A stretch of DNA of 20,749 nucleotides from a virus. Lineage: Duplodnaviria > Heunggongvirae > Uroviricota > Caudoviricetes. The notes beneath the pieces were generated by a model that did no database searches, was not told the origin of the DNA, and saw only the letters and a program-made list of their open reading frames with translations. The stretch is taken from the IMG/VR virus record IMGVR_UViG_2671180890_000003. One strand, written 5' to 3'. Positions 2,682-20,749 of the stretch are shown one piece after another. Each line of letters begins with the position of its first letter. The stretch's first letter is position 1. The translations under genes and the position numbers were made by a program.

Positions 2682-2905
2682 CCTTCTATGCTGTTTTTCC
2701 AACTAAAAGATTGGCACATTTATCCGCTGGTAGTGGCGTTTTTTCGCCGCCAGCGCCTCTCTGGTTCCATTCCTTACATCTGTTCAAATTCAGCAACCCT
2801 TGCCGCGATCTTGCCGTTATCGAGAAGCTCTTTCGCTTTTCGGTTAATACTATCGGTCTTCATATTGCCAGCAGCATACGCCATCCGATAATTTCGATGC
2901 TACGC

Positions 2906-3280: not shown

Positions 3281-3384
3281 GTAACGGCCCCATCAACTGG
3301 GAGCGGATTTGAGCCCCGAATGTGTAGGCAATGTCACTTAACGTTTGTCGCATACCTTCCAGAAAAAGCGATTCATGAATAATA

Positions 3385-3420
3385 GGGGCATGAATGCCCG
3401 GCGTACCGGGCTTATTAGTT
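3385..3420. terminator. Two overlapping GC-rich hairpins (GGGCAT/ATGCCC and GCCCGG/CCGGGC) with T-rich flanks; candidate intrinsic terminator just downstream of the lipoprotein gene
   Basis: Hairpins at 3386-3399 and 3396-3411. T-rich TTATTAGTT follows on the plus strand and CTATTATT on the minus strand; the T-tract is imperfect. Confidence 0.35.
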
Positions 3421-4117
3421 AATTTGGTGCTTTAGGGTCAACATTAAAAGTTATATCACCTTCTGTATTTTTCCCGGCATAGCTAGCGGCTATTCTCGCC
3501 AACCCTTTGTAATCAGCAATTCCATCAGACTGTTGCGAGACGACTGAGCTACCAACTTTCCATAACATATTAATCTGCCGATTATTGAGATAAGCCTTGG
3601 CATCAAACGACTGGAGTATCACCCCTGCGCCGTAGAACGTGTCCGTCACAGTTGTGTTATACGCGCCAGTAATTCCATAAGTAGGCGTATAAACTGTTGT
3701 TGCCGTTCCAGTGGTATTAGCTGTACCGTAGCCACCACCATAACTATTGAACGTGGTGTTCGAGTTTCCGTACGTTGTTGCTGAGCTCACACCAGTTTGC
3801 CCGTATATTGGGATGGTTACATTACGAGTATTTGAAATGGCCCCGCTTCTCAAAAAGTTCAAGAGAATTACCTGGTCAGCCAATTTTTCATCTTTAACTT
3901 GTGTATATCCTTGGCTTGATAAACTGGCGGCTACTACCGTAGCTATTTGAGTGTATTCAATCTGTTTGGTGTTCCAAAGTTCTTGGCTTGCGGGGATGAT
4001 CAAGAACTTCTTACCGACAGATTGCCCGGAAGATAAAGCATTGACCGTTACTAACGGTTTTTGTACGCATCCAGCCAATAATGACAGGGATAATATTAAA
4101 AGAAGATTTTTAATCAT
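3419..4117 (-). CDS. Lipoprotein (232 aa) with Gly/Thr/Tyr/Asn-rich central low-complexity region
   Basis: Signal peptide with lipobox LLAGC (MIKNLLLILSLSLLAGC). AGGTGAG SD upstream of ATG 4117. Possible own sigma70-like promoter (TTACAT...TAATTT) in the 150-bp gap upstream. Lower GC than the upstream module. Confidence 0.7.
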   Translation of the reverse strand: MIKNLLLILSLSLLAGCVQKPLVTVNALSSGQSVGKKFLIIPASQELWNTKQIEYTQIATVVAASLSSQGYTQVKDEKLADQVILLNFLRSGAISNTRNVTIPIYGQTGVSSATTYGNSNTTFNSYGGGYGTANTTGTATTVYTPTYGITGAYNTTVTDTFYGAGVILQSFDAKAYLNNRQINMLWKVGSSVVSQQSDGIADYKGLARIAASYAGKNTEGDITFNVDPKAPN

Positions 4118-4267
4118 GATAATCTCACCTAAGAATTGCGTGGTTATAAATTATCATCACTGTAAGCGAATGTAAGCCACAGGCTCGTAATGTGATATGG
4201 AATTTTGATAGTTGGCTCAATATCAGTATGCCGTCCTTGGCTATTATGGTTTTGTTAGTTAGAGCGT

Positions 4268-6988: not shown

Positions 6989-8304
6989 TGCCATCCCTTA
7001 AGTTTTGCCTGATAGTAACTTTCCGGCAGATAGCCATGTGCGGTCACATAATCCTTAACCAGTGAAGGATCCTGCAACAGCATTTTGGTATCAGTTTCTT
7101 CGTCCTTAGATTTGGTTACAGGAATACCGAGCCCGGCAATCTGTCGTTTCTGCATTCGAATAATTACGTCCTGCGCTTTATTCAACTCTCGCAAAAATGC
7201 CTCATTGCTGGTTGCTGACTTAATGCCATTTTGAGATTGCATAAGGGCAGCCCTTTCCCCTTCGGTTGGGTTAGAGCCAAAAGTCCCTTTGAGGCTAGGC
7301 AGAATAACCTTTAGGTTGTATTCATCAGCTTTGGCGCGTAGGCTTCGTGTGTCTTCTGCTACATCAGGAAGGAATCCAAACCCCAGCGTCAGGGGGTTAT
7401 AGTTCTGCGAGCGGGTAACGGCCGAAGGATGTTTCCCTACAATTCCCGCCAGTTCATGACCCACTTCAAGCGCAGAGTTCAAGGAGTCGATGTTACCTGC
7501 AACAGTATTAATTTTATCGTTCATCTTCTCCACTTTCGCCTGCTGTATCTTGCTCAGTTCAGCATTGAGCTTGTCTCTCTCGATGTCATTTTGAGCACGT
7601 CCAAGTCGTGCTTTCAGAACCATTTCTCTCGTGCGTAGTTGGTTATCGGATAGGACTTTGAACTGCTCCATATCGAGACGTCGATTACCCTGTTCCGCAT
7701 TAACCTGAGCATTATATGCGGATGTATCTGCGTTCTGCTGTGCAATGCTCTGCCCTTGCTGCTTCTCTTGAACACTAAAGTAACTATTTGGATCAGCATG
7801 GAGGTGGATGAGGTCAGTGATTCTGTTGAATTCCTGTGGGTCATTCTGCCAAGACTGATAAACCTCTTCAGCAGGAAGACCAAATCGCTGTAATACTGGA
7901 TTTGCCTGCTGAATGGCCTTCTGCATGGTCAGTGGATCTCCAGTTTGTGACGCAAGACGCAGATTCATGGCAGCGTCAGCGGTCTGTCGATTTTGCTCAG
8001 CATCAATGAATCCCATCTGTTTTTGAGAATCAGCCATAAACTGGGGATACTGGGCCATTAACTTCTGCACGCCAACACGATCATTATTAGCTACCGCACT
8101 ACCCAACCGTGCCTGATATTCTTTTAACTGCTGGGAAATTTGCGCCTGCTGATTAATCTCAGCAACGCCTCTTAGCCCCTGTAGCGCCATTAAACCTACG
8201 TTTGGCTGCTGCTGATACTGCACAGGCTGAGGAACGGAAGAACGAGGAGCATTATCATTTTGCGGTGCCATGCTAGGCAGCCCGCCAAGTTGCCATGTCG
8301 CCAT
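6985..8304 (-). CDS. Gln-rich coiled-coil protein (439 aa); putative virion internal protein (gp15-like position)
   Basis: Track ORF. Start overlaps the upstream stop by 1 nt (TAATG) and the stop overlaps the downstream start: a translationally coupled block. Confidence 0.7.
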   Translation of the reverse strand: MATWQLGGLPSMAPQNDNAPRSSVPQPVQYQQQPNVGLMALQGLRGVAEINQQAQISQQLKEYQARLGSAVANNDRVGVQKLMAQYPQFMADSQKQMGFIDAEQNRQTADAAMNLRLASQTGDPLTMQKAIQQANPVLQRFGLPAEEVYQSWQNDPQEFNRITDLIHLHADPNSYFSVQEKQQGQSIAQQNADTSAYNAQVNAEQGNRRLDMEQFKVLSDNQLRTREMVLKARLGRAQNDIERDKLNAELSKIQQAKVEKMNDKINTVAGNIDSLNSALEVGHELAGIVGKHPSAVTRSQNYNPLTLGFGFLPDVAEDTRSLRAKADEYNLKVILPSLKGTFGSNPTEGERAALMQSQNGIKSATSNEAFLRELNKAQDVIIRMQKRQIAGLGIPVTKSKDEETDTKMLLQDPSLVKDYVTAHGYLPESYYQAKLKGWQ

Positions 8305-8981
8305 TAGAATCCAAGCCCCCCAACAAGACCAATAAGCCCACCACCAATAGCCCCGGCGACATTACCTATACCCGGAACAACGGAACCAAGTTGCGCACCC
8401 GCTAAAGCGCCTGATGCCGCCCCACCAATACCACGCGCAAGACTGGATGGCTGCTGCGCCTGACCTGCACGAATAGCGCCAAGCCCCTGCAAGAGTTGCC
8501 CGGTATTATTGGCGTAGTTTTGCCCTGCTGTTGCCTGCCCTGATGCCGCATTCATCCCGACATTTAGCAGGTTTCCATAATTTTGCATTTGCCCACTGAG
8601 CCAATTGTTATAAAGCATGGGCGCAATGGAAGATAACTGGTTACTGGTAGCTGTTGAGCCAAGCCCCCCGGTAGCTTCTGCTGAGACAAGGTTCTGATAA
8701 CGGGCCTGATCTGCCTGTGTTTTATATAAACCAGAACCAAAGAAATCATTCGCGGCTTTATTCTGCCCTTCCAGAGTCATCAGCCCTTGCAGTTGTTGTA
8801 AAGCAGGCAATCCGACTTCTGCATACGGCTTGAGATTATTCATCACCGTATTCCACTGCTCGCGCTGCAAATCAATTGCCTGCTGCTGGGCCTTCGCCTG
8901 AGCTTTAGAGGCACCACCATCACCGCCTTTTTCGTATACGGCACGATTGAGATGTTTATGAGCTATATGGGTAATTAACAT
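8304..8981 (-). CDS. Gly/Gln-rich protein (225 aa) with hydrophobic Gly-rich C-terminus GGLIGLVGGLGF; putative membrane-inserting virion protein (gp14-like position)
   Basis: Track ORF, coupled to its neighbours; composition suggests membrane association. Confidence 0.65.
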   Translation of the reverse strand: MLITHIAHKHLNRAVYEKGGDGGASKAQAKAQQQAIDLQREQWNTVMNNLKPYAEVGLPALQQLQGLMTLEGQNKAANDFFGSGLYKTQADQARYQNLVSAEATGGLGSTATSNQLSSIAPMLYNNWLSGQMQNYGNLLNVGMNAASGQATAGQNYANNTGQLLQGLGAIRAGQAQQPSSLARGIGGAASGALAGAQLGSVVPGIGNVAGAIGGGLIGLVGGLGF

Positions 8982-9436
8982 TCGCTGAATTCCTTATATT
9001 GTTGCCGAGTTAACTGATAAAGCGTTACGCCGACGGGTTTACCACATCTGATATAAGCATCATCAAGGTGACCAACACGGGTAGCGCCAAGCAAACGGAT
9101 AATTGCCCGTCCGTATTTCGTGGTGTCAGGAACCATAGTGATGCTATTAAGGAATGGTGAGTTTTCGAGAAGCCATTTGCAGAATAATCGATGCCCTTGC
9201 AGTGCATATTCGCCACGGAATCCGGGGTCGTACACCGCATGGCATTCAACAACGCTATGCCAGAAGTTACGCACTTCATGAACGCCAGCCAGCACCAATC
9301 CTTCGTAGATGCCGAGATATACCGCATCAGGCTTGATGTAGTACGTGTGCCCCGGCTCAACAATATTTTCGGTATTGGCAGGCTCGTTAAGAAAGGCCTG
9401 TAATCGCACCGGGTTATCAATAAATTTTAGTTCCAT
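8975..9436 (-). CDS. Hypothetical protein (153 aa), first gene of the ejection-like block (gp13-like position)
   Basis: Track ORF with ATG start; overlaps the downstream gene by 7 nt. No family recognised. Confidence 0.6.
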   Translation of the reverse strand: MELKFIDNPVRLQAFLNEPANTENIVEPGHTYYIKPDAVYLGIYEGLVLAGVHEVRNFWHSVVECHAVYDPGFRGEYALQGHRLFCKWLLENSPFLNSITMVPDTTKYGRAIIRLLGATRVGHLDDAYIRCGKPVGVTLYQLTRQQYKEFSEC

Positions 9437-9452
9437 GCGGTGCCATCCATTT

Positions 9453-9614
9453 TCACATACAGCCTGCCAGCGCCTTATCTATTAACCCTCGTGCAATTTC
9501 ATGCAGAGTTGGCGCTACTCCAATTCCTGATTTTTTACGCTGCTCTTCCTGAATTTTCTTTATCGCTTCCATTTGCTTCTCACTTATCAATACCGGCTTT
9601 ACTGAAATAGCCAT
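9453..9614 (-). CDS. Small putative ribbon-helix-helix regulator (53 aa, MAISVKPVLISEKQMEAIKK...)
   Basis: Below the track length cutoff. ATG 9614 is preceded by AAGGGGG SD; the stop is 16 nt upstream of the 153-aa gene. The strand-helix-helix pattern is my inference. Confidence 0.4.
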   Translation of the reverse strand: MAISVKPVLISEKQMEAIKKIQEEQRKKSGIGVAPTLHEIARGLIDKALAGCM

Positions 9615-9709
9615 AACGCCCCCTTAGAACTGTATAAAACAACAGTTATTATAGTTTCACAAATCGCAATATTCATCATCGTAATTGCAAAATATGAAAC
9701 AAATAGCAC

Positions 9710-9741
9710 AAAAAAATGCCACCGCTCAGTAGCTGGTGGCA
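9710..9741 (-). terminator. Intrinsic terminator for minus-strand transcripts: stem TGCCACC(GCT)/(AGC)GGTGGCA followed by T7 on the minus strand
   Basis: Plus strand shows A7 (9710-9716) then the hairpin 9717-9741. Ends the primase-side transcription unit before the ejection-like block. Confidence 0.6.
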
Positions 9742-9751
9742 TCGTTCTGTG

Positions 9752-9781
9752 TGTCAGGTTTTGACAGGTTTTTTATGGACT
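9752..9781. repeat. Copy A of hairpin + T6 + ATGGACT element (TGTCA-ggttt-TGACA, T-run 9769-9774, ATGGACT 9775-9781)
   Basis: TTTTTTATGGACTCYRAAAACT matches copy B at 20 of 22 positions. Contains a perfect TTGACA hexamer at 9761-9766. Confidence 0.5.
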
Positions 9782-10108
9782 CTAAAAACTATATTTATGG
9801 TATCGCATTACTCTTCACGGCAGGCGCTTTTCAGTTCTGCCCTTGCTTCTGGCTCCATTGGTAATTTGATTCGCGATCAGCTATGCGGATGGTTTGCTGA
9901 ACAGGCATAACAACATCTCAGAGGCTATTTTTTGAACTACGAAAATTTCGTAGGTCTCTCCTTCAAAAACGTCACGCCCTTGTACACTGGATTTTACAAA
10001 AGTCTCGTAAAACTCTTTCCTGTTCTGGGCTATGTGCCAAACCGCAGCGAATACCTCCGTCTGCCAGATGAGCAAAACATACCTTATAAAGAAAATCGCT
10101 GTTTTTGC

Positions 10109-10210
10109 TGTACCACCTGTACCACCATGTCACAAACCCTTGTGTGGCGCGGCCTGTAGGTGGTACAGGTGGGTAAAAATGACCTCTCCCCACCTGTACA
10201 GACCTGTACC
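10109..10210. repeat. Iteron cluster built on CCTGTAC/GTACAGG (TGTACCACC x2 tandem at 10109-10126; GGTGGTACAGGT at 10159-10170; CCTGTACAGACCTGTACC at 10193-10210)
   Basis: Read directly from the sequence; the same 12-mer family occurs in the 11230-11335 cluster. Candidate ori/crr-type binding sites for the adjacent primase. Confidence 0.75.
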
Positions 10211-10216
10211 ATTTAT

Positions 10217-10954
10217 TTAATTTTTACCCATAGCAGCACATAATCCCTTTTTTGAAATATTGAAAAATGCGTTCATTCTTCCCGCTGGCTTAACCTTGTA
10301 GCCGCTTGCCACCATCGCCGCAATAAATGCTCCGTTGGGGATATAGTGCGGGTGATCACTGTGCTGGTGGTTTATCTGGTTATATCGCTCCACTTCATGC
10401 TTCAACGTGTCAGATGTGGGGTTATCCTGCGGGAAGCTCTCAATCTGGGCATTACTCATCCCGTTGTCTCTGATCCATCTCAGGCAGCTTTTCGCCGATA
10501 CGATAAATGACGGGTTATCAAGCGGGTTTTCCCAGTCCGCATTCCGGTTGTGGAGCGCCAGTCCGTCAAGGTTAAATTGTGGGTATTCAGCGGTAATTAC
10601 TGTCACTGCGTGGCGGATTTCAGTCTCGTCACAACATGGCTCATCTCCCACACCAGCAGGGTAATAATCTGAACCACCGGGACTGATACAGCGTTTACCA
10701 CTGAAAGGCCATTGCTTCGCCATTTCGGGTGTTGAGTGATTACCGTCGCTCCGTTCGCGCTGTGCCTCTGTCCACTGGCTGGCATATTCAGTAAATGAAA
10801 CCCTTTGCCCCTGGCGCATCCAGTGCGCAATCATAATTAAAGTGCGTTCCAGACTTTGGATGTCGCCAGCATTCCCGCACTGTGTAGCGAAACTTTTTAA
10901 TTCTTCGCGCTCCGTTCTGGTCATTCCCTGCGGTATGCAATAGTTATTGTTCAT
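10217..10954 (-). CDS. Hypothetical Cys/His-rich protein (245 aa)
   Basis: Track ORF. ATG 10954 forms an ATGA overlap with the upstream gene; GAGAGG SD. No family recognised. Confidence 0.6.
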   Translation of the reverse strand: MNNNYCIPQGMTRTEREELKSFATQCGNAGDIQSLERTLIMIAHWMRQGQRVSFTEYASQWTEAQRERSDGNHSTPEMAKQWPFSGKRCISPGGSDYYPAGVGDEPCCDETEIRHAVTVITAEYPQFNLDGLALHNRNADWENPLDNPSFIVSAKSCLRWIRDNGMSNAQIESFPQDNPTSDTLKHEVERYNQINHQHSDHPHYIPNGAFIAAMVASGYKVKPAGRMNAFFNISKKGLCAAMGKN

Positions 10955-11187
10955 GTTTTACCTCTCTGTTTTACCTCTCTGATTTCTGCTGCCATATCTG
11001 TTGGCTCTATACAGCCGTCCCGACTTGCCACGCAGGGAATAATGATTTCAACGGTATCGCCGTCAATACACATTTCAACATTCGCCCATGCCGCAATGGG
11101 TAGCCAGTCTGAACGCCCCTCAAACCGTAGCTGCCAGCCAGAGGAAGAAGCTAACTGGCGCACTTTGTAAAATGGTGTGCTCATCAT
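10951..11187 (-). CDS. Hypothetical small protein (78 aa)
   Basis: ATG 11187 preceded by GAGAGGGAA SD. The 3' end contains a 13-bp tandem duplication (10955-10980) that also duplicates the SD of the next gene. Confidence 0.5.
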   Translation of the reverse strand: MMSTPFYKVRQLASSSGWQLRFEGRSDWLPIAAWANVEMCIDGDTVEIIIPCVASRDGCIEPTDMAAEIREVKQRGKT

Positions 11188-11229
11188 TGGTTGTTCCCTC
11201 TCAGCCAGCCAGAAGAAATGCGTTTGTTA

Positions 11230-11335
11230 ATGGTATAGGTGGTACAGGTCTGGTATAGGTAAGATATTGACCTGTACCACTATAACGCACTGTTTTTAAT
11301 ACTGAATTAGCAAAATGGTATAGGTGGTACAGGTA
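11230..11335. repeat. Iteron cluster: 19-mer TGGTATAGGTGGTACAGGT x2 (11231-11249, 11316-11334), half-copy TGGTATAGGT (11251-11260) and inverted CCTGTACCAC (11271-11280)
   Basis: Read directly from the sequence; sits in the 177-bp gap immediately downstream of the primase-helicase stop. Candidate replication origin. Confidence 0.8.
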
Positions 11336-11363
11336 AAAACGTTCTTCTTGTAAAAAGACTATA

Positions 11364-13718
11364 TTAAAAAACATCATAACCCCCCATACCGATCAGACGT
11401 GCAAACGCAGCCTGTAGAACTCCGACCTCTGGTAGTTCGTAGAACACGCCATTCCCACGGTCTGGTCTTCCATGCTTCACCAGTCCCATTTGTGCAAGTG
11501 ATTTACCCAGTAGTGATCTGGCTGCTGGTTCTTTAAGCTTTTCCCCACGCTCAAGCGACCACGCTACAAATCGACTAACCATATCCTTTGCAAACAAACG
11601 GACTTCGCCATTAAACGGAGGTTCATTGATTAGCTCGCCATAAAGAAACAATTCAACGCCAGACAGCCCCAGCAAGATTTCTTCACGTAAGGCATCGGTC
11701 TGTGGCGCTCGTTGAGGGTCAAAACCTGAGAGATCCACCCCTTTAAGATGCCAAAGCAACTTTGCGGCACCGCCATCATTAAGCCAACTGTACAGCCGAT
11801 CAAAATACTCCCGGCTCTGTGCTTTTTCAGGAGATGGCTCAAGCACGAGATAGCGGCGCTCTCTTATCCCTGCCTGTAATACCTGTGTGCTGTTACTGGC
11901 AAATATCAACCGGGCAAAATTCGGCATTGGTTCAGCATCAATTCCCTTGCGCTCAAGGTTAAACGTCGGTTCGCTAATAATCGCTTTAAGTCTGTCAGCT
12001 TCAGACGGCTTGTGGATCGTCACTTCGTCAGCAAATACCAGTAGCTTGTTAGCAAGTATTGAATTGAAGCGCCCTGAAATATGTCCCGCCCCGTTAATGT
12101 GGGCGGCGTACTGCCCCAGTATTTGCAGCAGCGGTTTAACCGTTGTGCCTTTCCCTGTGCCCGGGACAGATTTCATCACGATTGCCACGGACGGTTTTTC
12201 ATCAGGCTTTTGGATAATGTGCGCCATCCACTGGATAAGATATTGGTATGCCTCTTCATTACCGGCACAGACAACCTGCAACAGGTGATTAAGGTATACC
12301 GTGCAATCTCCTTCAATTGGTTCCAGTGCCAGCCCCTCATACAGATTAAAAACATCGTCAGGGCATTTGTCTGGTACTGGATAAAATCCTACGCCTCCTG
12401 GCTTGTAGTTCTTCCCACTCCATGACAGCCACGCCGATCCCGCCAGCTTTCTGGCGACTCTCGGTTTATGATGAAAATAATGCTGAAATTGTGATAAATC
12501 CTCGAAAACGTGCGATACACCGCCGGTTTGAGAAGGCTTTAGCGACACCACCTTGTGTTTCCCGCCGATGGTGACATGCGTAAACGTCCGGTTGATTTCT
12601 TTGAGGACAGCAATTTCATCATCGCTTAACACCTCGCCAGAACTGATCTCATTCAGCGCCCCGACTGACTGTTTGTGATTTTTCACCTGCGCCCCTTTCC
12701 CCCGTGGCTGGTACATCGAATCTTTAAATGCTGCTGTGGCTGCCGCCAGCCCGTGTTGTTGGTGATAGTCGTTCCAGTCGGCTTTATAGTCAGTCGGTGG
12801 CAGAGACACCCAGCCAGCTACGGAAATAGCGGCCCTCTCTGCGGCATCTTTCCCCGTGTTGATCCCTCCACTTTCGGAGTTTCCTTGCTGGTGATCGTTA
12901 TCTGCGGCAATGATGATTTGTGCCTGTGGATATGTTCTGCGCATGACTTCCGCTACTGGCAACAGGTTGCCAGCGTCGATTGCTGCCACTGTCATTGCGT
13001 CAGGGCGAATTAAATGGCACGACAGGGCGGTAGCCACCCCCTCAGCAATTATGATGCTGTGAGGTCGTTTCTGTGCGTTTATGGCGTGATATGCCCCCCG
13101 CTTTGCTGAACCTGTCAGGAGTCTTTTTTCACCATGTGAGGTAATTGTCTGTGCTGCTGTGACTGCGCCGGATTTATCCACCAGCGCCAGCAACAGAGAT
13201 CCATCGGGCAACACGGGGAATGTAAAATCACCTACCCCTTTCGCAACCAGATAATCAGATTTGCCGTTTACAGCCTTTCTGCGCATGTCATCAAACTGAC
13301 GGGAAAACGTATCCCGTCTTTGTTGTTCGTCCTTCTCTGCCCTTTTCAGGCGCTCCTGTTCGCGTCGCTGGCGCTCGGTTTCCAGTTGTTCCCGTTTCTG
13401 GCTGGTGGCTTCTGGTGTTTCCGTTGTCCGGTAATCAATACCCAGAACATCAGCGGCAAGCAGCGCCGCCTCTGTTGTGTCGCAGTTATTTACGCGTTTA
13501 ATTAAATCCAGCCCATCACCAGCGCCGCACTGATTACAGATGAAGCTACCGCGCCCGTTGTCATCGAACCGGAATCGATCTTTGCCCCCACATGCAGGGC
13601 AGGGAGCATGACGGCGCGGAGAGTCAGGGACATTTATGTTCAGGCAGCCCAGCACATGAGGCCAGTTGTTTTCAGACGCACTGATAACCTGACGGATAAG
13701 ATCAATGTTTCGCATCAC
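11364..13718 (-). CDS. P4 alpha-type primase-helicase (784 aa): Zn-ribbon, TOPRIM primase, SF3-like helicase
   Basis: CPACGG...CNQCG zinc ribbon; TOPRIM-like IIIAEGVATA and IIIAADNDHQQ; Walker A VPGTGKGTT and Walker B LLVFADEV. Confidence 0.85.
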   Translation of the reverse strand: MMRNIDLIRQVISASENNWPHVLGCLNINVPDSPRRHAPCPACGGKDRFRFDDNGRGSFICNQCGAGDGLDLIKRVNNCDTTEAALLAADVLGIDYRTTETPEATSQKREQLETERQRREQERLKRAEKDEQQRRDTFSRQFDDMRRKAVNGKSDYLVAKGVGDFTFPVLPDGSLLLALVDKSGAVTAAQTITSHGEKRLLTGSAKRGAYHAINAQKRPHSIIIAEGVATALSCHLIRPDAMTVAAIDAGNLLPVAEVMRRTYPQAQIIIAADNDHQQGNSESGGINTGKDAAERAAISVAGWVSLPPTDYKADWNDYHQQHGLAAATAAFKDSMYQPRGKGAQVKNHKQSVGALNEISSGEVLSDDEIAVLKEINRTFTHVTIGGKHKVVSLKPSQTGGVSHVFEDLSQFQHYFHHKPRVARKLAGSAWLSWSGKNYKPGGVGFYPVPDKCPDDVFNLYEGLALEPIEGDCTVYLNHLLQVVCAGNEEAYQYLIQWMAHIIQKPDEKPSVAIVMKSVPGTGKGTTVKPLLQILGQYAAHINGAGHISGRFNSILANKLLVFADEVTIHKPSEADRLKAIISEPTFNLERKGIDAEPMPNFARLIFASNSTQVLQAGIRERRYLVLEPSPEKAQSREYFDRLYSWLNDGGAAKLLWHLKGVDLSGFDPQRAPQTDALREEILLGLSGVELFLYGELINEPPFNGEVRLFAKDMVSRFVAWSLERGEKLKEPAARSLLGKSLAQMGLVKHGRPDRGNGVFYELPEVGVLQAAFARLIGMGGYDVF

Positions 13719-14073
13719 CGTACCCCACGTGGTCTATAGCGTTTGCGATATGGCTAACCAGCATCTGCCACTTGGTTATTCCGTAATCAGTCAGCATGCC
13801 ATCATTGTTTAGCCACATATCAAATTCAGCGGTTGTCGCAAGTTTCCACTTATCGCCGTGGACAGTCCTCATTGCTGGGTACATGAATGCGCAAATCAGA
13901 TCACAAACATCTGACGGCTTCAGAGATGTAGTAATGGTGCGTCCCTCTGGCGTCTGAATTGCCATTTTCTCTTCACCAGTAGAATGAAGGTTATGAATCC
14001 ACACAGCACCAGCAATCTTTGCCACCTGCTCTCCGATTGCGGAGCTAAGCGCCATTTCTGCATTTTCACGCAT
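13702..14073 (-). CDS. Hypothetical protein (123 aa)
   Basis: Track ORF; overlaps the primase start by 17 nt and the upstream gene by 8 nt. Confidence 0.5.
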   Translation of the reverse strand: MRENAEMALSSAIGEQVAKIAGAVWIHNLHSTGEEKMAIQTPEGRTITTSLKPSDVCDLICAFMYPAMRTVHGDKWKLATTAEFDMWLNNDGMLTDYGITKWQMLVSHIANAIDHVGYGDAKH

Positions 14074-14407
14074 GAGAACCTCCCGCTACAGTTGCGCCCA
14101 TGTCATTAACCATGCTTTGCCATATCTCACGACCGACGTCAGTCAATCCGTCCTTAGTGACGCAACGCTCAAGAAGCTCGATCCCCACGGTTTCCCACTG
14201 CGGGTAGAACACTTTCATGGCTGCCAGTGTGTAGCTATCGATCAGGCTGCGAACGCCTTTTACTCCATTGACGATTTCCACACGTACGGCCTCGCCGTCC
14301 GCATCAACCATGAAATAGTCCCCGCCGCTGGTGGAGGTAATGTGGTTATACAGTGCCGACGCATACTTATTTGCCAGCGCATTCAGTCGGAAATTTTTAG
14401 TAATCAT
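14066..14407 (-). CDS. Hypothetical protein (113 aa)
   Basis: Track ORF; ATG 14407 with GAGGATGGAG upstream. Confidence 0.5.
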   Translation of the reverse strand: MITKNFRLNALANKYASALYNHITSTSGGDYFMVDADGEAVRVEIVNGVKGVRSLIDSYTLAAMKVFYPQWETVGIELLERCVTKDGLTDVGREIWQSMVNDMGATVAGGSHA

Positions 14408-14417
14408 GGCTCCATCC

Positions 14418-15020
14418 TCAGTGCGTCACTGGTTCCGCTGGCATGCCGTTTTCATTCAGTTCAGCTATAAAGCTGTTGTGAAGTTCAGCAAGCGTTTCAC
14501 GACCAAATGGAGTCAGTGCTCCTTGTTCCACATCCATCATGGCTCTGTAGAAAATGATGGCGCGTTCTGTGCCAGACTCGATGCCAAAACGTTCTATCAT
14601 CGCTCCCTCAATGTTGTTTGCCATAGCGAGGCGCTCTGCTACTGGATACAGCGGCATGGCGACGATGCCGTTGGAATAAACAGCCACTTCGGAAGGATTG
14701 CCAGTATCATCAATGATGCTGACAGTGCCGTTTTCCTCTCTCATTTCCAGCATGAATACTGTTGCGATCAGCCATCTCCACATAATGACGTTATGCTGTG
14801 ATGTGTAATCGAAATATCCCTGGTTGCCGCCATCGGCAATAGCGAGATGTATAAACATGCCTTCATCTGGTTTATCGTCATAATCCCCGGCATCCAGACG
14901 ATTTACGGCATCAATATATGAGACGGTCTCAACGTGTTCTGTCATGCCATCGTTGCTGCGGTGCATGATGTTTACGCCGTCAGGCGTTGCTTCTGCATGG
15001 AAGGTTAAGAAATTATTCAT
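14418..15020 (-). CDS. Hypothetical acidic protein (200 aa from internal ATG 15020)
   Basis: Track ORF extends to 15125, but ATG 15020 gives the typical 8-nt overlap with the upstream gene stop and has a GAGG SD. Confidence 0.5.
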   Translation of the reverse strand: MNNFLTFHAEATPDGVNIMHRSNDGMTEHVETVSYIDAVNRLDAGDYDDKPDEGMFIHLAIADGGNQGYFDYTSQHNVIMWRWLIATVFMLEMREENGTVSIIDDTGNPSEVAVYSNGIVAMPLYPVAERLAMANNIEGAMIERFGIESGTERAIIFYRAMMDVEQGALTPFGRETLAELHNSFIAELNENGMPAEPVTH

Positions 15021-15234
15021 GTTTCGCCTCGCCTGAATGATTCTGTAACTCATATTTGCCCAACAATTCGTCTGCTTCCTGAATAGCTTCTGGTACGCCA
15101 TTGAGCAGTGACATAACCGCGCCAATCATTAACTTGTCTCTGTTGCTGGGGCTGGCCCCTTCAAGCCAGAACCCTAAAACAGTCTGAACCTGTTCGATGC
15201 GACATTGCGCTTCAATGAGCTGGATGTTGGTCAT
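15013..15234 (-). CDS. Hypothetical small protein (73 aa)
   Basis: Track ORF; ATGA overlap with the upstream gene. Confidence 0.45.
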   Translation of the reverse strand: MTNIQLIEAQCRIEQVQTVLGFWLEGASPSNRDKLMIGAVMSLLNGVPEAIQEADELLGKYELQNHSGEAKHE

Positions 15235-15494
15235 TTCGCACTCTCCACATCGATTAAACTGATATCTATCAGGGAGGTAACTTTTTGTAGCCAGCTATTG
15301 ATTACTGTCGCCTGTTCCCCTCCCACCGAGGGAATAATCTCATTCATCACATGAACCAGACCTGTGCGCGCTCTGGTAAGCCGTTCAGTCGCGCAATCTG
15401 CGGGAGTGAATGTGTCTGGATATGGCTCTTCGCGCCCCAGCAATGATTCAATTTCCAGCTCACACGGATGACGATAAATTAAGTTGATATTCAT
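15231..15494 (-). CDS. Hypothetical small protein (87 aa)
   Basis: Track ORF; GGGGGTG SD and ATGA overlap. Confidence 0.45.
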   Translation of the reverse strand: MNINLIYRHPCELEIESLLGREEPYPDTFTPADCATERLTRARTGLVHVMNEIIPSVGGEQATVINSWLQKVTSLIDISLIDVESAK

Positions 15495-15685
15495 TTTTCA
15501 CCCCCAAGAATTACCAGCTCGGCACGGGCATCGTTAACCAAAGATGAGCACGCTTTAATCGCATCCACGACATCAGCAGCGTCCATTTCTTCAGCCGAAA
15601 GACTGACAGCAACCAGGACAGCCGCTGCTTGCTCGATTAATTGAAGTGCGGACGTAAGGCGAGGGGTATTAATTGAGTTATTCAT
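15491..15685 (-). CDS. Hypothetical small protein (64 aa from ATG 15685)
   Basis: Internal ATG with GGGGG SD and 8-nt overlap with the upstream stop; the track ORF extends to 15742. Confidence 0.4.
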   Translation of the reverse strand: MNNSINTPRLTSALQLIEQAAAVLVAVSLSAEEMDAADVVDAIKACSSLVNDARAELVILGGEK

Positions 15686-15896
15686 TGGTTGCCCCCGTTT
15701 TGCATGGCATTTCGCCACCTTCCAGCAGGAAATGAACGTCACGAACGGCGAGATCCAATATCGCGAGTAACGCCTTCAGTCTTTCGTCTCGTGAGGGAGA
15801 GTTGCTCACCAGAATGTCGTTAATCACTTCTGTCAGTGTGATGATCTGGCTTGTGCGTTCGAGGGGGTCCATATGCACATCGTAGGTTTTAATCAT
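15678..15896 (-). CDS. Hypothetical small protein (72 aa, MIKTYDVHMDPLERT...)
   Basis: ATG 15896 preceded by GGAGGTGG SD. It is the C-terminal part of the 355-aa track ORF, which I interpret as a run-on frame. Confidence 0.5.
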   Translation of the reverse strand: MIKTYDVHMDPLERTSQIITLTEVINDILVSNSPSRDERLKALLAILDLAVRDVHFLLEGGEMPCKTGATNE

Positions 15897-16083
15897 GTGC
15901 CACCTCCATGCGGATACGACCAGCAAAAAAGCAGACGTGATCGCGCACCAGAGAACGGCGAGCATCGCGTTCAGACTCGGCAGCAATATGATGAATTTTG
16001 GCGGTAATTGTCGGGCAATCGCGGCGAACTGCGGCGATAATCCAGATAAATTGCGGTTTTTGGGTAGGGGTAGTAGCCAGCAT
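15889..16083 (-). CDS. Hypothetical small protein (64 aa), first gene after the candidate promoter
   Basis: ATG 16083 preceded by AAGGAGG SD. The region is GC-rich with open frames on several strands, so coding status is uncertain. Confidence 0.35.
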   Translation of the reverse strand: MLATTPTQKPQFIWIIAAVRRDCPTITAKIHHIAAESERDARRSLVRDHVCFFAGRIRMEVAHD

Positions 16084-16231
16084 GTGGCAGCCTCCTTGTA
16101 CTGGGAATTCTTCCCACCACCGGAGCTGCGAAACTCGCTGGTGGTGGACTGAACAGAGTTCGCAGTACCGGCGTACAAGGAAACCGGCCAGCCTTTCGGC
16201 TGCCCTGTCCAGCCCACCATAATTTTGCAAG

Positions 16232-16270
16232 CGACGCGGATTATAACCACATCACTGAAAAAAGTGTGAG
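16232..16270 (-). promoter_or_regulatory. Candidate sigma70-type promoter for the small-gene/primase operon (perfect TATAAT -10, weak -35, T-rich upstream)
   Basis: Minus strand reads CTCACACTTTTTTCAGTGATGTGGTTATAAT immediately downstream of the 16286-16307 terminator. No strong -35. Confidence 0.25.
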
Positions 16271-16285
16271 TCTGGCTAACGGCAC

Positions 16286-16307
16286 AAAAAAAGACGCTCG
16301 GCGCGTC
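16286..16307 (-). terminator. Intrinsic terminator for minus-strand transcripts: GACGC-tcggc-GCGTC hairpin followed by T7
   Basis: Plus strand A7 at 16286-16292 then hairpin 16293-16307; the stem is only 5 bp. Separates the regulatory operon from the primase operon. Confidence 0.5.
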
Positions 16308-16310
16308 ATG

Positions 16311-16745
16311 TGTCGCCTCGTACATTTCCGGGCTGCGAAACCCGGCACCCGTTTTATGAGGTGCCTTATAACCATAAACCGTGTTGCCGCATAACGGCAA
16401 GCTCTTTTTTATGGACTCCGAAAACTCACTATTGGAAGAACCAGAAGCACAGTACATCGCGCTCATTTCGTTAACGTCACGCGCGTGGACGAATGTTTTT
16501 GTGGAGTCACTACACGAGCGGAAGACATCATCTACGACCAGAAATTTTCTGGCGCAGCCGCTGACCTTCTCAATGCTAATATCATCGCCCGAGATTTCTG
16601 GTATGGTTAAGGCATCCGTTCCGACCACCAGCAAATGATAAACTTTGCTTGTATCTGCTGTATTAATGCCTGACTTTGCCGTCATATTTCTGGATTTTGG
16701 CGACATGCCAGCCAGTGAAAATGTCTTCTTCTGGACGGGTATCAT
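16311..16745 (-). CDS. ORF of unknown function with a strong start but unresolved 3' end (possible frameshifted or fused gene)
   Basis: ATG 16745 has a GGAGG SD and an ATGA overlap with the upstream gene. The frame has no stop until 15678 and runs through a terminator hairpin and a promoter-like region; the end coordinate is nominal. Confidence 0.3.
16384..16417. repeat. Copy B of hairpin + T6 + ATGGACT element (TTGCCG-cataa-CGGCAA, T-run 16405-16410, ATGGACT 16411-16417)
   Basis: Shares the 14-mer TTTTTTATGGACTC with copy A. On the plus strand it resembles an intrinsic terminator; it lies inside the minus-strand ORF that starts at 16745. Confidence 0.5.
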
Positions 16746-16921
16746 TGGTTAACCTCCGCGAACTCCTTCATGAAACGCGCCAGCGGTTGTACGCATGGCG
16801 ATTGATACCCGTCGCGATAAAACCTCACTCGGTTGTGAGACACGCTTTCGACAGTAACGAGTGCTCCGTGGGCATCTTTGTAGCGTTTTTGTGGTTGTGG
16901 TGTTCCTGTTGGCTTAGACAT
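16742..16921 (-). CDS. Hypothetical small protein (59 aa from ATG 16921)
   Basis: GGAGG SD and 8-nt overlap with the antirepressor-like gene stop; the track ORF extends to 17008. Confidence 0.5.
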   Translation of the reverse strand: MSKPTGTPQPQKRYKDAHGALVTVESVSHNRVRFYRDGYQSPCVQPLARFMKEFAEVNQ

Positions 16922-17747
16922 TGAGCGCCTCCAGACGCTTGGCGAGCCAGCGTTGCGACAGGCGGGTGAGTTCTCCTTTGCGCTGCTCATATTCCATGCC
17001 CATATCAATTAACGTGATATTGGTGCTTTCGAGATATGAGAGGTGCTCAAGCTGTTCTGCGTTCATATGGTCGCGAGGTTCGCCAGAATAGCCATTTATC
17101 CGCGCCCACTGCTTAGCAGTTAGCCCTCCAAGAACGATACGAGAAATCATATTGCTCTCGTTTGTGTAGTGGTGTTGCTGCGTCGTTTTCCCCTGCTCGG
17201 CACGGGCCATATTCAGCGCATCGCACATTGGCTTAAAGTTGTTTGCGGCACTGATACGGGCTTTTAGCTGGCGACGATAGCGGGCGGCGATTTCAGGCAC
17301 GCTACGCTGTAATTCTTCCTCGCACTGGATGAAATAACGACGGATAGCGCGACCCTGATCATTGCGTTCGATCATTGCCAGTTCTTTCGCCATTCCGACA
17401 CTTAACAGATAGTCTTTGCCGGGTCTGCCAGACTGCTTAATCTTGCTGTAAGCCGCGCCATTCGGGCTTTTCCCCAAATTTGGGGAAATAGTTTTATGGA
17501 CTGAGTAATCGTGCCCAATGGTGAAGTCATATTCAGAGATGCGATCAGTGATCCATGTAGAGAAGTCTTTTCCCACGCCCAACGCTTTGTGTAACGCTTT
17601 TGCGCTAACAATATTGGTTTCACGCCCACCGATATGACCAGGAATAACCGGGACAATTGCGGCAAATTCATTACCGTTAATTGTGCTCAGAGAGGCGTTC
17701 AGATGAGGGGCGGCCTCAGAAATTAATCTGCTTTTTTCGATGTTCAT
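16914..17747 (-). CDS. Phage antirepressor-like regulatory protein (277 aa)
   Basis: GGAG SD upstream of ATG 17747. The N-terminal region (NGNEFAAIVPVIPGH...SAKALHKALGV) resembles Bro-N/KilA-N type antirepressor domains; from memory, not searched. Confidence 0.55.
   Translation of the reverse strand: MNIEKSRLISEAAPHLNASLSTINGNEFAAIVPVIPGHIGGRETNIVSAKALHKALGVGKDFSTWITDRISEYDFTIGHDYSVHKTISPNLGKSPNGAAYSKIKQSGRPGKDYLLSVGMAKELAMIERNDQGRAIRRYFIQCEEELQRSVPEIAARYRRQLKARISAANNFKPMCDALNMARAEQGKTTQQHHYTNESNMISRIVLGGLTAKQWARINGYSGEPRDHMNAEQLEHLSYLESTNITLIDMGMEYEQRKGELTRLSQRWLAKRLEALNV
17472..17502. repeat. Copy C of hairpin + T-run + ATGGACT element (CCCCAAATTTGGGG palindrome 17472-17485, TTTTATGGACT 17492-17502)
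   Basis: Read directly from the sequence. Lies inside the antirepressor-like coding region, in a different reading frame from copy B, so conservation is at the nucleotide level. Confidence 0.5.
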
Positions 17748-17759
17748 TTTCAGTCTCCG

Positions 17760-18191
17760 TTAAGCGGCGTTAAACGCGTCCGGGTAGAGTTTCAGAATGT
17801 CGGCAATTTCCTGCTGAGAAAGTCCGTTGTGATCATTTATGTTCGCAAGATGGTTAATATGAGTGATCACTTTCAGAACATCACCACGGCAGGAGAAACG
17901 GTAGCGAAGGTGTGTTCCGATACCATCAGGATTCTTTTCGTCGATACGCTCCAGAGTGATTCCAAGCTGGCGTTCTAACTCTGTTGCATAGTTACGACCA
18001 GAAGACAGACGGCAGTAGCGAAGAATGTCGTTTTCTGTCCATCCCTCTATACCAGTACGCAGCATATAGACTCGGGCACGATGCTTTTTCGGTGTGCGCT
18101 TTGGTGCTTGAAGGGATTTTGTAAGGGGCGTAATATCAGATACGCGAATATCTGAATTAGCCGCCTGTAATGGGCGGTTTTTCTTTTCCAT
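17760..18191 (-). CDS. Hypothetical basic protein (143 aa)
   Basis: Track ORF; start overlaps the AlpA-like stop by 1 nt. No family recognised. Confidence 0.55.
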   Translation of the reverse strand: MEKKNRPLQAANSDIRVSDITPLTKSLQAPKRTPKKHRARVYMLRTGIEGWTENDILRYCRLSSGRNYATELERQLGITLERIDEKNPDGIGTHLRYRFSCRGDVLKVITHINHLANINDHNGLSQQEIADILKLYPDAFNAA

Positions 18192-18409
18192 CAGGCCACC
18201 TTCCCGCGGCGTTCTGCCAGCCAGTTATTAATTTCCACCGCATCAAACGCAGTCACGTTATCTGTTAGCTTCACTGGGCGTGGAAGAGTGCCATTTTTAA
18301 CCCATCTATCAATAGTAGGCAGTGAAACACCTAGCAATTCCGGCATGCGAAAGCGACGGATGTATCCAGTTGTTGGGATAGCTGATGATGCTGGCTTGTG
18401 TGCTGTCAT
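18191..18409 (-). CDS. alpA: AlpA-family prophage transcriptional regulator / excisionase-like HTH protein
   Basis: RFRMPELLGVSLPTIDRWVKNGTLPRPVKL...WLAERR matches the AlpA pattern. ATG 18409 chosen for a plausible SD; the track ORF extends to 18478. Confidence 0.7.
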   Translation of the reverse strand: MTAHKPASSAIPTTGYIRRFRMPELLGVSLPTIDRWVKNGTLPRPVKLTDNVTAFDAVEINNWLAERRGKVA

Positions 18410-18514
18410 ATGTCCTGTAACTCCTGTGATAGCTGTTGAAGTTACGGTAATCATGTGAGCAGGGGGATTAGATGTCATCGCAACGAAAAATGGATTTTCG
18501 TTGCGAAATTATCT

Positions 18515-19396
18515 TTATGATTTAAAAGATTTGTTAGCTGATGAGAAATATTCATCCAGTAAGCGGGAGCTTAATTTTAAACCCCTATCCAGCATTTCTG
18601 CTTTGAGGGCTTCTTGTGTCCACCTTTTAGAAGTTGGTTCGGCTTTCTTTAAAGCGTTGAGCACCGCGCCAAGCAGTAAAAGGCTTTCATCGAGGTTCAG
18701 GAGACTGTTGTTATCACTGAGTGTTTTCTTTTCAAATTCTGCAATATTTTCTTTTCTGAATACGAACTCGACATTACCCAGCCCATCAGCAGGATAGAAA
18801 AAGGGATGATAACCATCGAGGCTAAAGTCAACAAACCTCTGTGATTCTTTGTCGTACAGTTTAGGTTTGCCATTTTCATCTGACTTGATGGCATATTCAT
18901 TGAACGCGTTCAGAATATTCACCAGACCAAATTCTGTTAAGAGGAAAGCACCTTCCATGTTGTGAAATTCACGGGGAACCTTGTCGCGTGAAAGGTCAAA
19001 CTCGTGCATAACATCTAAAGATTCAGCCCCAACCATCGGTAGATCGTATATGCCATGATTAATACGAAAAACATCACTGACTCTTTCTATATCTTCGTAT
19101 TCATAATCCAATTGTTCATTAGTATAGAATTCATCACCGGCAGGAGTTCTAATTACCGCACCTTCGTTAGTATTTTCAACAATCCACTTTTCAAAAACTC
19201 TTCGTTGCGAGTTTTTGATGACTTGAGCAGCGATAGCGTAACGGCCTTCGTCCAATATCGCTGAAATTGTAATGTGGCCTTCTACAGCCAATTGCAGGCA
19301 ATCGGCTACAGATACCCTTTCACCGAGTGTTGTGCTTAACCTGTTTGCGGTTTCCTCTATGGTCAACCAACTTTTGAACTGGAACAATTTGCTCAT
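18515..19396 (-). CDS. Hypothetical protein (293 aa), AT-rich cargo gene between integrase and AlpA
   Basis: Track ORF with ATG start and AAGG SD. Visibly lower GC than the flanking integrase and regulatory genes. No family recognised. Confidence 0.65.
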   Translation of the reverse strand: MSKLFQFKSWLTIEETANRLSTTLGERVSVADCLQLAVEGHITISAILDEGRYAIAAQVIKNSQRRVFEKWIVENTNEGAVIRTPAGDEFYTNEQLDYEYEDIERVSDVFRINHGIYDLPMVGAESLDVMHEFDLSRDKVPREFHNMEGAFLLTEFGLVNILNAFNEYAIKSDENGKPKLYDKESQRFVDFSLDGYHPFFYPADGLGNVEFVFRKENIAEFEKKTLSDNNSLLNLDESLLLLGAVLNALKKAEPTSKRWTQEALKAEMLDRGLKLSSRLLDEYFSSANKSFKS

Positions 19397-19489
19397 AGCG
19401 TAACCTTTCGCGCTGCCTTAAAGAGTGACCGGAACAGGCGGTAAGGCTTTCCGCTTTTCGCCCCGTCGGGCTAGTTCCGGTCTGTTCGG

Positions 19490-20749
19490 TTACTTTGCCT
19501 TTCTGATAGGCGTCACGTTGTAATCTTCGCCCTTCTCCAGAGCCACCAGCAAGCCCGCCCACTGTGTTAACGCAGCCCGGCGCTCGTCAAAGTATTGGTG
19601 ACGGTTATAGATACCCTCAACGCCTTTTATGCGGTGATTGAGGCATCTTTCAGCCACTACCGGATCAACGCCCAGCGCTGCTAAATGAGTACGTGCGGTG
19701 CGTCGGAAGTCGTGAATCGTGAAATTAGGCACATCCGGCATTTCGGCGCGAACCTTAGCCAGTGCTACGGGTAAAGTGCTTTCCTGAATATGTGGGATCA
19801 TTCTGTTTTGCATTTTCCTGGCTGGAAGCACCCATGCGCTATTACATGAAAAGGCGTGAAGCTCTCTCAACCATTCAACGGCTGGGGAAGGTAGAGGTAT
19901 ATCAATAGGGTCTCCGTTTTTGCTGCGTTCTTCCGGCAAATGCCATACCGCACCATCTAAATCAAACTCTTCCCATCGTGCGGCGCATAACTCCATCTTA
20001 CGAACGCATAGTGCCAGCAATAGCTTAAATGTCAGTTCGTTCTGGCGGCTGAATCCTTTTGCGGTGCGCATAGCCTCGAATAGCCTGATAAGCTCATCGC
20101 GAGTTAGCCAACGGTCGCGGGAAACCTCTTTACCACCAGCATCAGATACTTCAAACGCTGAACAAGGGTTTATCTCCAGAGCGTGGCGTTTTATTCCATA
20201 GTCAAAGATACGGCGTGTCCAGCGTAATACATCTGTTGCTATCGTTGGTGCTCCTCGGTCAACGATACCTTTCAACATGTCGTCAATGTGGCGTGGCTTA
20301 ACGTCCTCTACCTTCATATGCCCAATGCAGGGGTTAATATCCTTATCAATTCTCCGGCGAAGGATATCGGGATGTTTCCATCTCGGAAGTATCTGGCGCT
20401 CGAAGTATTCGGAGGCCAGATCTGAAACACGCATGGCGTTTTTCTCAGTCTCCATTTTTGCCAGTGCTTCAGCTTTTCGTTCCTGTTTCTCTGCTGCTAC
20501 GTCATAGCCAAGAGCAACTCTGGCTGACAGCTCTTTTGCTGTTTCTCTGGCTTTTGATAGTGACAGTTCGGAGTAAGAGCCTATAACCATAGCCCGCTGC
20601 TTTCCTGCGAGCTTATAGCGGAATCGCCAGAACGGGACTGTGTAGTTTTTGGGGTAGCAAATATAAAGGCCGTTGCCGTCTGCCTTGCCATCAAATCTGT
20701 CTCCCGCCTTTATCCATGCGCGGATCTGCATATCTGTGAGTTTTGGCAT
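19490..20749 (-). CDS. int: P4/CP4-57-family tyrosine integrase (419 aa)
   Basis: C-terminal catalytic motifs HDFRRTARTH (HxxR) and a conserved Tyr in GIYNRHQY; N-terminal region typical of P4-type integrases. The start codon is at the last base of the window. Confidence 0.9.
   Translation of the reverse strand: MPKLTDMQIRAWIKAGDRFDGKADGNGLYICYPKNYTVPFWRFRYKLAGKQRAMVIGSYSELSLSKARETAKELSARVALGYDVAAEKQERKAEALAKMETEKNAMRVSDLASEYFERQILPRWKHPDILRRRIDKDINPCIGHMKVEDVKPRHIDDMLKGIVDRGAPTIATDVLRWTRRIFDYGIKRHALEINPCSAFEVSDAGGKEVSRDRWLTRDELIRLFEAMRTAKGFSRQNELTFKLLLALCVRKMELCAARWEEFDLDGAVWHLPEERSKNGDPIDIPLPSPAVEWLRELHAFSCNSAWVLPARKMQNRMIPHIQESTLPVALAKVRAEMPDVPNFTIHDFRRTARTHLAALGVDPVVAERCLNHRIKGVEGIYNRHQYFDERRAALTQWAGLLVALEKGEDYNVTPIRKAK

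Follow-up and report, generated by a model that had tools for sequence, protein, structure and literature searches.

A probable P4/P1-type RNA immunity module inside a translationally coupled 355-codon reading frame of an EcCIMP1-like chromosomal island

Phage P4, phages P1 and P7, and Salmonella Gifsy-1 contain the described systems that are closest to the region discussed here, a 355-codon open reading frame (ORF; 15678-16745, minus strand) together with the RNA genes inside it. The region lies in a 20,749 nt stretch of DNA from a virus of the Caudoviricetes (IMG/VR record IMGVR_UViG_2671180890_000003), which was analyzed as a whole and is called the window in the following. In P4, the immunity region has the order PLE-seqA-cI-seqC-kil/eta. 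In the passages of PMC10111431 that summarize Forti 1999, a constitutive promoter is placed inside the P4 eta gene, and its transcript is quickly terminated via CI/seqA interactions and processed to the CI RNA. According to the same passages, Kil is translated only on read-through, and eta only from the upstream late promoter, in coupling with an alpA homologue, and eta translation prevents termination. Profiles for the C4 and isrK RNAs detect relatives of CI and seqA in phage-inducible chromosomal islands (PICIs) (Mageeney et al., PMC10111431). We think that the window region is probably an RNA immunity module of the P4/P1 type in a PICI similar to EcCIMP1, and that the long ORF is the counterpart of P4 eta, an ORF that serves for the transit of ribosomes.

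The immI region of P1 and P7 (c4-icd-ant) was reportedly described by Citron and Schuster in 1990. The C4 RNA is said to be cotranscribed with its target and to pair through two elements with a2 and b2 at the icd ribosome-binding site; a further a1/b1 copy is said to lie upstream, and an Icd-family gene to follow. The window shares with immI the c4-icd layout, the target pairs and the Icd-family gene. In contrast to P1 and P7, the gene after icd is not an antirepressor, and the cassette is located inside a long coupled ORF, upstream of replication genes. In Gifsy-1 (isrK-orf45-anrP), the IsrK terminator is leaky, the read-through transcript contains a C4-like processed RNA (STnc1160), and the middle part of IsrK pairs with a downstream region (PMC4825925). 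Hfq binding and partial terminator read-through were observed experimentally for Salmonella IsrK, which is a structural homologue of the P4 seqA RNA (PMC4825925). The orf45 gene has conserved nucleotides and variable amino acids, and serves translational coupling (PMC4825925). In contrast to the long ORF of the window, orf45 begins only after the IsrK terminator, and its coupling is to the antirepressor; IsrK acts as an activator in trans, and no long ORF entering from upstream is described in that system.

The similarity to P4 extends to the order of the parts, which is the same in both regions. In P4, the same Rfam models match, with isrK/c4-a1b1 (RF03163) over seqA just downstream of PLE, and C4 over the CI RNA (P4 positions 8507-8420). 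The Kil/Icd homologue is encoded by the first gene after CI, and the next gene, epsilon, overlaps kil by 8 nt, much as a 72-aa gene overlaps the icd stop codon by 8 nt in the window. P4 eta starts on an upstream stop codon (ATGATG over the TGA of orf88), and its frame through promoter, seqA and CI is in the same register with the RNAs as that of the window ORF. There are also differences. The spacer between Shine-Dalgarno sequence (SD) and ATG is 1 nt shorter in the window, and as a consequence the ORF enters icd in the +1 frame, overprints it, and ends at the stop codon of the next gene. The upstream partner is a DUF4222 gene instead of alpA/orf88, the terminator and C4 are 45 nt closer to each other, with a TATAAT in the spacer, the 5' part of the ORF contains a P22-type small terminase (terS) fragment, and the whole is carried by a PICI with a primase of the TOPRIM/DUF927 type. 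The mechanism as such is a known one, and we regard the +1 exit over icd, the optional TATAAT and the embedded pac-like fragment as minor variants of the window.

Both RNA genes were located by Rfam covariance models, inside the long ORF and on the same strand. The IsrK/seqA-like small RNA (16287-16364, minus strand) matches RF01394 with 69 bits (gathering score 50). It has two 5' hairpins, presents the a1 element in the loop of hairpin 2 (16339-16333) and the b1 element at 16323-16316, and ends with a terminator stem (16307-16293) and a run of 7 T residues that extends to 16286. The minus-strand terminator that had been noticed in a preliminary description of the sequence is thus the 3' end of this RNA. 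The C4/CI-type antisense RNA (16137-16224, minus strand) matches RF01695 over its full length with 81.1 bits (gathering score 45). It contains the b' element in the loop of hairpin 2 (16181-16173), the a' element in the 3' single strand (16165-16159), and a conserved 3' end (...CACCACCA). As a family, C4 RNAs are cut by RNase P out of a longer transcript and repress downstream expression, and the conserved 3' end is the feature of the sequence that bears on this. Next comes the icd leader, the analogue of seqC (16084-16136, minus strand), with the a2 element at 16132-16126 and the b2 element at 16101-16093, which overlaps the icd SD (AAGGAGG, 16097-16091). The leader is followed by the Icd/Kil-like gene (15889-16083, minus strand), which encodes 64 amino acids and matches NCBIfam NF033153 with 71.7 bits. 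By analogy with the P1 and P4 systems, icd would be the first gene under C4 control.

For comparative purposes, loci were anchored on the Icd-like gene, which gave 80 related loci; 21 types, less than 85% identical to one another, were aligned with P4 (alignment A3, 22 sequences), and one wrongly oriented sequence in alignment A1 was ignored. The window C4 as a single-sequence nhmmer query matched 57 of the 87 sequences searched. It misses loci because C4 is hypervariable between otherwise near-identical loci, hence the anchoring on icd and the alignment of the whole segment. Among close relatives, which are 89.6-100% identical overall, 42% of the sites are variable in C4, 42% in the spacer and 38% in the leader, compared to 2% in icd. 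Hypervariability of the RNA cassette is the pattern expected for exchangeable immunity specificities.

The variation follows base pairing. The sequence UUCGCAG, complementary to the a' element (CUGCGAA), occurs twice in hairpin loops, once in hairpin 2 of IsrK and once in the icd leader. The b' element (UCCUUGUAC) finds its complement in GUACGAGG of IsrK, and a second one in GUACAAGGA, a stretch that overlaps with the icd SD. Across the types, the three copies change together (ACGCCAA/TTGGCGT, GTCCTAA/TTAGGAC and AGACCAA/TTGGTCT, as well as TTCTCAC/GTGAGAA in P4). The a and b pairs were set by eye and then tested by covariation; RNAduplex predictions on the whole RNAs gave meaningless long duplexes. 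In the 22 types, the pairing of C4 with a1/b1 is maintained in 98.8% of the cases, with 13 of 15 pairs changed on both sides and a covariation of 0.84 (0.18 after shuffling). For C4 with a2/b2, the values are 97.4%, 13 of 16 pairs, and 0.755 (0.160 after shuffling). The intramolecular stems behave similarly: 98.9% of the cells are paired and 23 of 44 pairs are compensatory for isrK and C4 taken together, with slid-partner controls at 35-47%. The three C4 helices alone, a long closing stem around two hairpins, are 100% paired in the 22 sequences, and 15 of their 27 pairs have changed on both sides. The 5' strand of the C4 closing stem is repeated in the leader as GGUGGUGG, and this copy co-varies with the C4 3' strand (GGCGGUGG in L007, GGUGAUGG in L021 and GGCGAUAG in P4). 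Accordingly, the read-through transcript may adopt an alternative pairing before it is processed.

The IsrK-like RNA is preceded by a predicted promoter of the constitutive type (16371-16410, minus strand), which we regard, from sequence and conservation, as the analogue of P4 PLE. It comprises an A-tract (AAAAAAGAG, 16410-16402), a -35 element (TTGCCG, 16400-16395), an 18 nt spacer, a -10 element (TATGGT, 16376-16371), and a predicted start at G16364. The arrangement TTGCCG-18-TATGGT-6-G16364 is conserved in 21 types, and is found at the same place as PLE in P4 (TTGCCT-18-TATAGT). A generic promoter scan of the sequence did not call the TTGCCG-18-TATGGT site, the candidate internal promoter of the module. 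The preliminary description had noted a terminator-like plus-strand hairpin (16384-16400, with a T-run to 16410) facing the minus-strand terminator, and had taken it to suggest convergent or antisense transcription. The sequence does not support this interpretation. On the minus strand, the T-run reads AAAAAAGAG, directly upstream of the conserved IsrK-like -35 element, and the plus-strand "terminator" is most simply the A-tract together with a -35/spacer palindrome of the internal promoter. By simple consensus counting, terminator-like sites are not enriched in the sequence (3, compared to 2.0+/-1.5 expected in shuffles). As consensus counts alone do not exceed the shuffle level, the case for the terminator and promoter-like sites has to be made by conservation. 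The terminator helix is 100% paired in the 22 divergent relatives, with compensatory GC to CG changes in two of them.

A perfect TATAAT (16240-16245, minus strand) is positioned between the IsrK-like RNA and C4, 16 nt upstream of the latter. It lacks a good -35 element, and is a candidate second C4 promoter. TATAAT is exact in 10 of the 22 types and deleted in 8, P4 among them, and is therefore dispensable. Where present, it may act as a direct extra promoter for C4.

All these elements are crossed by the long ORF. Its ATG (16745-16743) overlaps the TGA of the DUF4222 gene (16744-16742) in an ATGA, with a GGAGG (16757-16753) 7 nt upstream. The ORF then passes through the pac-like fragment, the internal promoter, the IsrK-like RNA, C4, and icd (in the +1 frame), to continue in the frame of the 72-aa gene (15678-15896, minus strand), which has an SD of its own (GGAGG, 15907-15903) and forms the in-frame C-terminus. 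The ORF, its SD and ATGA coupling, the terminator, the TATAAT, the two small genes with their SDs and the plus-strand hairpin were all found where the preliminary description had placed them.

The RefSeq name of the ORF product, "ash family protein", raises the possibility that it is a bona fide protein of the Ash/Bro network with a meaningful amino acid sequence, and that the RNA genes merely overlap with its gene. Several observations favor this view. The label is used in hundreds of genomes, the frame and in-frame indels are conserved, and residues 124-232 match positions 1-106 of the 107 in the Pfam profile PF10554 (Phage_ASH) with 99.7 bits (gathering score 26). However, the matching segment corresponds to nucleotides 16376-16050, which means to isrK, the spacer, C4 and the leader. 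No other part of the locus varies as much (about 40% of sites, compared to 2% in icd); the variation is explained by RNA covariation, and the segment shows no relaxation at third codon positions. Over the RNA region, substitutions at codon positions 1, 2 and 3 number 13/10/14, 10/9/7 and 7/6/7, without a third-position signal, and the column entropies in the 22-type alignment are 0.75/0.81/0.78. No fold is predicted for the long ORF by AlphaFold2, with a mean pLDDT of 33 and values below 50 for all of the residues 1-303; the 72-aa C-terminal part alone reaches 50-63. Moreover, the 5' regions of the ORF are non-homologous between relatives, and in the window this region is antisense to the terS fragment. 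We therefore consider it unlikely that the amino acid sequence is what matters.

The PF10554 match also coincides with isrK and C4 in the "Ant" protein of an Stx1 phage and in the "immunity region" ORF of phage SfV (orf37), while for the old P4 "cI protein" coding sequence (CDS) the match is limited to the C4 half of the profile. The conservation of the PF10554 segment can be attributed to RNA pairing. The Pfam "Ash" domain is a conceptual translation of two RNA genes, and the "family" reflects RNA conservation in a frame that is kept open. In these two lambdoid phages, Stx1 (L091, 1275-2297) and SfV (L092, 1143-1979), the isrK and C4 cassette is found inside long, tightly coupled ORFs, with cro-side genes on one side and replication genes on the other. 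The cassette frame is fused to a real Rha domain in the Stx1 phage, a fusion that can be cited in favor of the Ash protein view.

If the amino acid sequence is not selected, the open frame itself needs an explanation. It could be an untranslated by-product, if G+C-rich structured RNA genes happened to be stop-free in one frame, and if this state was inherited by descent. The loci are indeed all homologous, and conserved RNA sequence can freeze a stop-free frame. Stop codons were counted in fixed phases, from nhmmer anchors, in the unique isrK-to-icd segments (n=49). The frame of the long ORF is stop-free in 48 of the 49, whereas the other five frames contain 2.3-4.2 stops on average and are stop-free in 0, 0, 4, 2 and 7 segments. 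Mononucleotide shuffling of the 281 nt RNA region gives a probability of about 0.026 per frame for the absence of stops. In the 22-type alignment, the ORF frame contains 2 stops, both in the IMG/VR locus L065, but the other two forward frames contain 69 and 89, at 27 and 21 distinct columns, which is not what would be expected for a by-product. L065 is the sole broken frame among the 49; the T-run of its IsrK-like terminator is 1 nt short, either because the element has decayed or through a homopolymer sequencing error.

The lengths of the segments point in the same direction. According to the indel list, the net differences are -42, -39, -36, -15, -12, -12, -9, -3 and +45 nt, and all preserve the frame; in L082, out-of-frame indels compensate one another. 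Spacer indels of eight different net sizes thus keep a frame, which is not required by RNA structure. The coupling to an upstream gene recurs as well. In 64 of 67 unique loci, the ATG of the ORF (GTG in two) overlaps or abuts an upstream stop codon (as ATGA, ATGnnTAA or TAATG), and in most of these coupled loci it is preceded by an SD of the GGAGG or GGGGG type. Between groups, neither the upstream genes (52-295 aa) nor the 5' parts of the ORF (about 70-440 nt) are related, yet the coupled ATG and SD persist.

A further observation comes from the exit of the ORF. The frame through the RNAs is identical everywhere, and a difference of 1-2 nt between the SD and the icd ATG sets what follows. In P4 (eta/kil) and in 26 of 68 unique relatives, the ORF continues in frame with icd. 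P4 Kil is homologous to the Icd-like protein of the window, and the C-terminus of P4 eta also matches NF033153. In the window, the ORF reads through the entire icd gene in +1 and then falls into the frame of the 72-aa gene, whose stop codon ends the 355-codon ORF. The in-frame and +1 classes are interspersed on the icd tree. A stop codon in the +1 frame inside icd never occurs in the loci that enter icd in +1, but is present before the icd stop codon in 17 of the 26 in-frame loci. Hence, the +1 frame through icd is open throughout only where the ORF uses it, which again speaks against an untranslated by-product, an explanation that we consider very unlikely. The open frame is far beyond chance, and is neither an accident nor a decayed gene. 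The ORF appears to be selected for openness and coupling, not for amino acid sequence.

The least plausible explanation, a pseudogene or run-on ORF that has lost its ancestral stop by mutation or frameshift, as envisaged in the preliminary description, can draw on the 417-codon version in H7/L003, which results from a 1-nt difference near the 3' end, and on the RefSeq pseudogene mark in E. coli MP1, but it is extremely improbable, and is refuted by the criterion that the preliminary description itself had set, because orthologues of 90-100% identity have the same uninterrupted 355-codon ORF. Moreover, 21 more divergent types and P4 also keep the frame open across the junction, and the 478 E. 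coli genomes, like 48 of 49 unique relatives, have as a rule an ORF without interruption. The MP1 label is an annotation artefact, since the frame is open in this strain over 356 codons (355 and one codon upstream of the ATG).

Several points have to be set against our own interpretation of the ORF as a counterpart of P4 eta. The mechanism is transferred from P4, P1 and Gifsy-1, and for the window element it is suggested by homology. The 22 types share descent, so that stops and indels in them cannot be counted as fully independent events. In contrast to P4 eta, the window ORF is not in frame with kil/icd, but crosses icd in the +1 frame. The first 145 nt of the ORF exhibit a weak excess of substitutions at third codon positions (5/4/13), as would be predicted for an Ash protein, and there may be some protein-level constraint in this part. 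Finally, the alignment for the AlphaFold2 prediction was shallow (27 sequences).

With these reservations, the window holds every sequence element that is needed for the logic of P4 eta. By homology with P1 c4-icd and P4 CI-kil, short transcripts from the internal promoter would supply the IsrK-like RNA in the repressed state, and processed C4 RNA would come from read-through or from the TATAAT. C4 would then pair with the leader, mask the icd SD and block the translation of icd. The untranslated RNA would be terminated, and the downstream replication genes would stay off. When the upstream operon (an alpA-like gene, an antirepressor and the DUF4222 gene) is transcribed, ribosomes would proceed, as in the case of P4 eta, from the DUF4222 stop codon into the overlapping ATG at 16745. 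They would translate through the promoter, the terminator hairpin, C4 and its targets. Translation would prevent hairpin formation, antisense pairing and access of Rho, and the upstream transcript would be insensitive to immunity. The avoidance of stops and the frame-preserving indels support such an antitermination role indirectly. The preliminary description had alternatively considered regulated termination and reinitiation at this place. Its termination part agrees with our findings, in that the 3' end of an IsrK/seqA-like RNA is followed by a C4/CI RNA within an eta analogue. We do not retain reinitiation.

A close relative of the window element is EcCIMP1, a PICI of E. coli MP1 that is mobilized by the P22-like phage Kapi1. 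EcCIMP1 is 97-99% identical to the window in the ranges 2810-10013 and 12881-18201. The IsrK-like RNA, C4 and the leader are identical in the two elements, and the same frame is open. In contrast, the integrase/alpA end of the window (above 18201) and part of the primase region (10013-12881) have no match in EcCIMP1, and the integrase end also differs from locus L001. The "Ash family protein" is listed among the conserved genes in the EcCIMP1 paper (PMC11773190), and a term search of this paper for isrK, antisense RNA, Icd and a pac site gave no result.

The pac-like fragment (16491-16597, plus strand, 107 nt) lies antisense to the long ORF, in its 5' third. As a fragment of a P22 gp3-type small-terminase gene, it shares 91-92% identity with the E. 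coli P22-like phages Bas106 and Dewey, 90.7% with IME10, and 86% with P22 gene 3. The 22-bp pac site annotated in P22 marks the exact point where the similarity sets in, and the substitutions fall on third codon positions of terS. The Kapi1 TerS is of a different type, and has no similarity to the window fragment. As the 5' regions of two other types (L021 and L049) have no match in the phage collection, the fragment appears to be specific to the EcCIMP1-like group. It is possible that it is a mimic of a helper pac site, in which case it would predict the helper range.

Combining these observations, we put forward a more general proposal, for which we see the chances as evenly balanced. The "Ash family" ORFs of satellites and lambdoid phages would be sequence-agnostic ribosome-transit frames, with selection only on openness and coupling. 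The window variant would overprint the whole of icd in the +1 frame, which is open only in lineages that enter it in +1. The ORF would also shelter a P22 gp3-type pac mimic, and this would predict a preference for a P22-like helper of the gp3 type rather than Kapi1.

The surroundings of the long ORF provide some context. The upstream DUF4222 gene (16742-17008, minus strand; RefSeq start at 16921) matches PF13973 with 82.7 bits, and is annotated accordingly in the identical locus L001. On the other side, the next small gene of the coupled chain (15491-15685, minus strand) has its ATG at 15685, overlapping the TAA of the long ORF by 8 nt. Further upstream, an int-alpA RNA motif (Rfam RF02996, 66 bits) is found at 19415-19481 (minus strand), between the integrase ORF (19490-20749) and a 293-aa ORF (18515-19396). 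About 70 nt upstream of the alpA-like gene, at 18478-18537, there is a promoter-like CTAACA-18-GATAAT, followed directly by a 12-bp inverted repeat (18478-18506). This region is a candidate for the regulated upstream promoter and operator, in analogy to P4 PLL.

Loci of this kind are common. A match is present in 1041 of 5426 complete E. coli genomes, or about a fifth, and 478 of them contain the full region. In the protein database, there are 237 related clusters, and the 120 listed range from 196 to 538 aa. RefSeq has four names for one frame (L001, L003, L006 and L088), namely a 355-aa ash protein, a 417-aa fusion, a pseudogene with a separate Icd-like gene, and a 290-aa "Icd-like protein". 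A fusion to AntA is a further annotation of the same locus. The RNA genes are unannotated in all four of these regions.

The P4 reference record (L004, NC_001609; 8168-8584 and 7888-8175) still annotates a CDS on top of the CI RNA, as "cI gene product / transcriptional repressor", and PF10554 matches this CDS. The P4 epsilon protein matches PF25738, not PF10554. In a survey of P4-like satellites, PF10554 was used as the marker for P4 epsilon (PMC8628076). Since the epsilon protein lacks a PF10554 match and the old "cI" ORF has one, satellite detection schemes of this type score the RNA immunity locus.

If our interpretation is correct, one stretch of DNA plays two parts: transcription from the internal promoter makes it an RNA immunity switch, and transcription from upstream turns it into a translated conduit that is proof against termination. 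Annotation usually overlooks the RNA genes and the real Icd-like gene, and the comparison yields at least 20 natural specificity variants with matched a and b elements. For islands of the EcCIMP1 type, the pac-like fragment is a candidate explanation of the helper range. More generally, the "ash" ORFs are a clean case in which to test whether selection acts on translation itself, rather than on a protein product.

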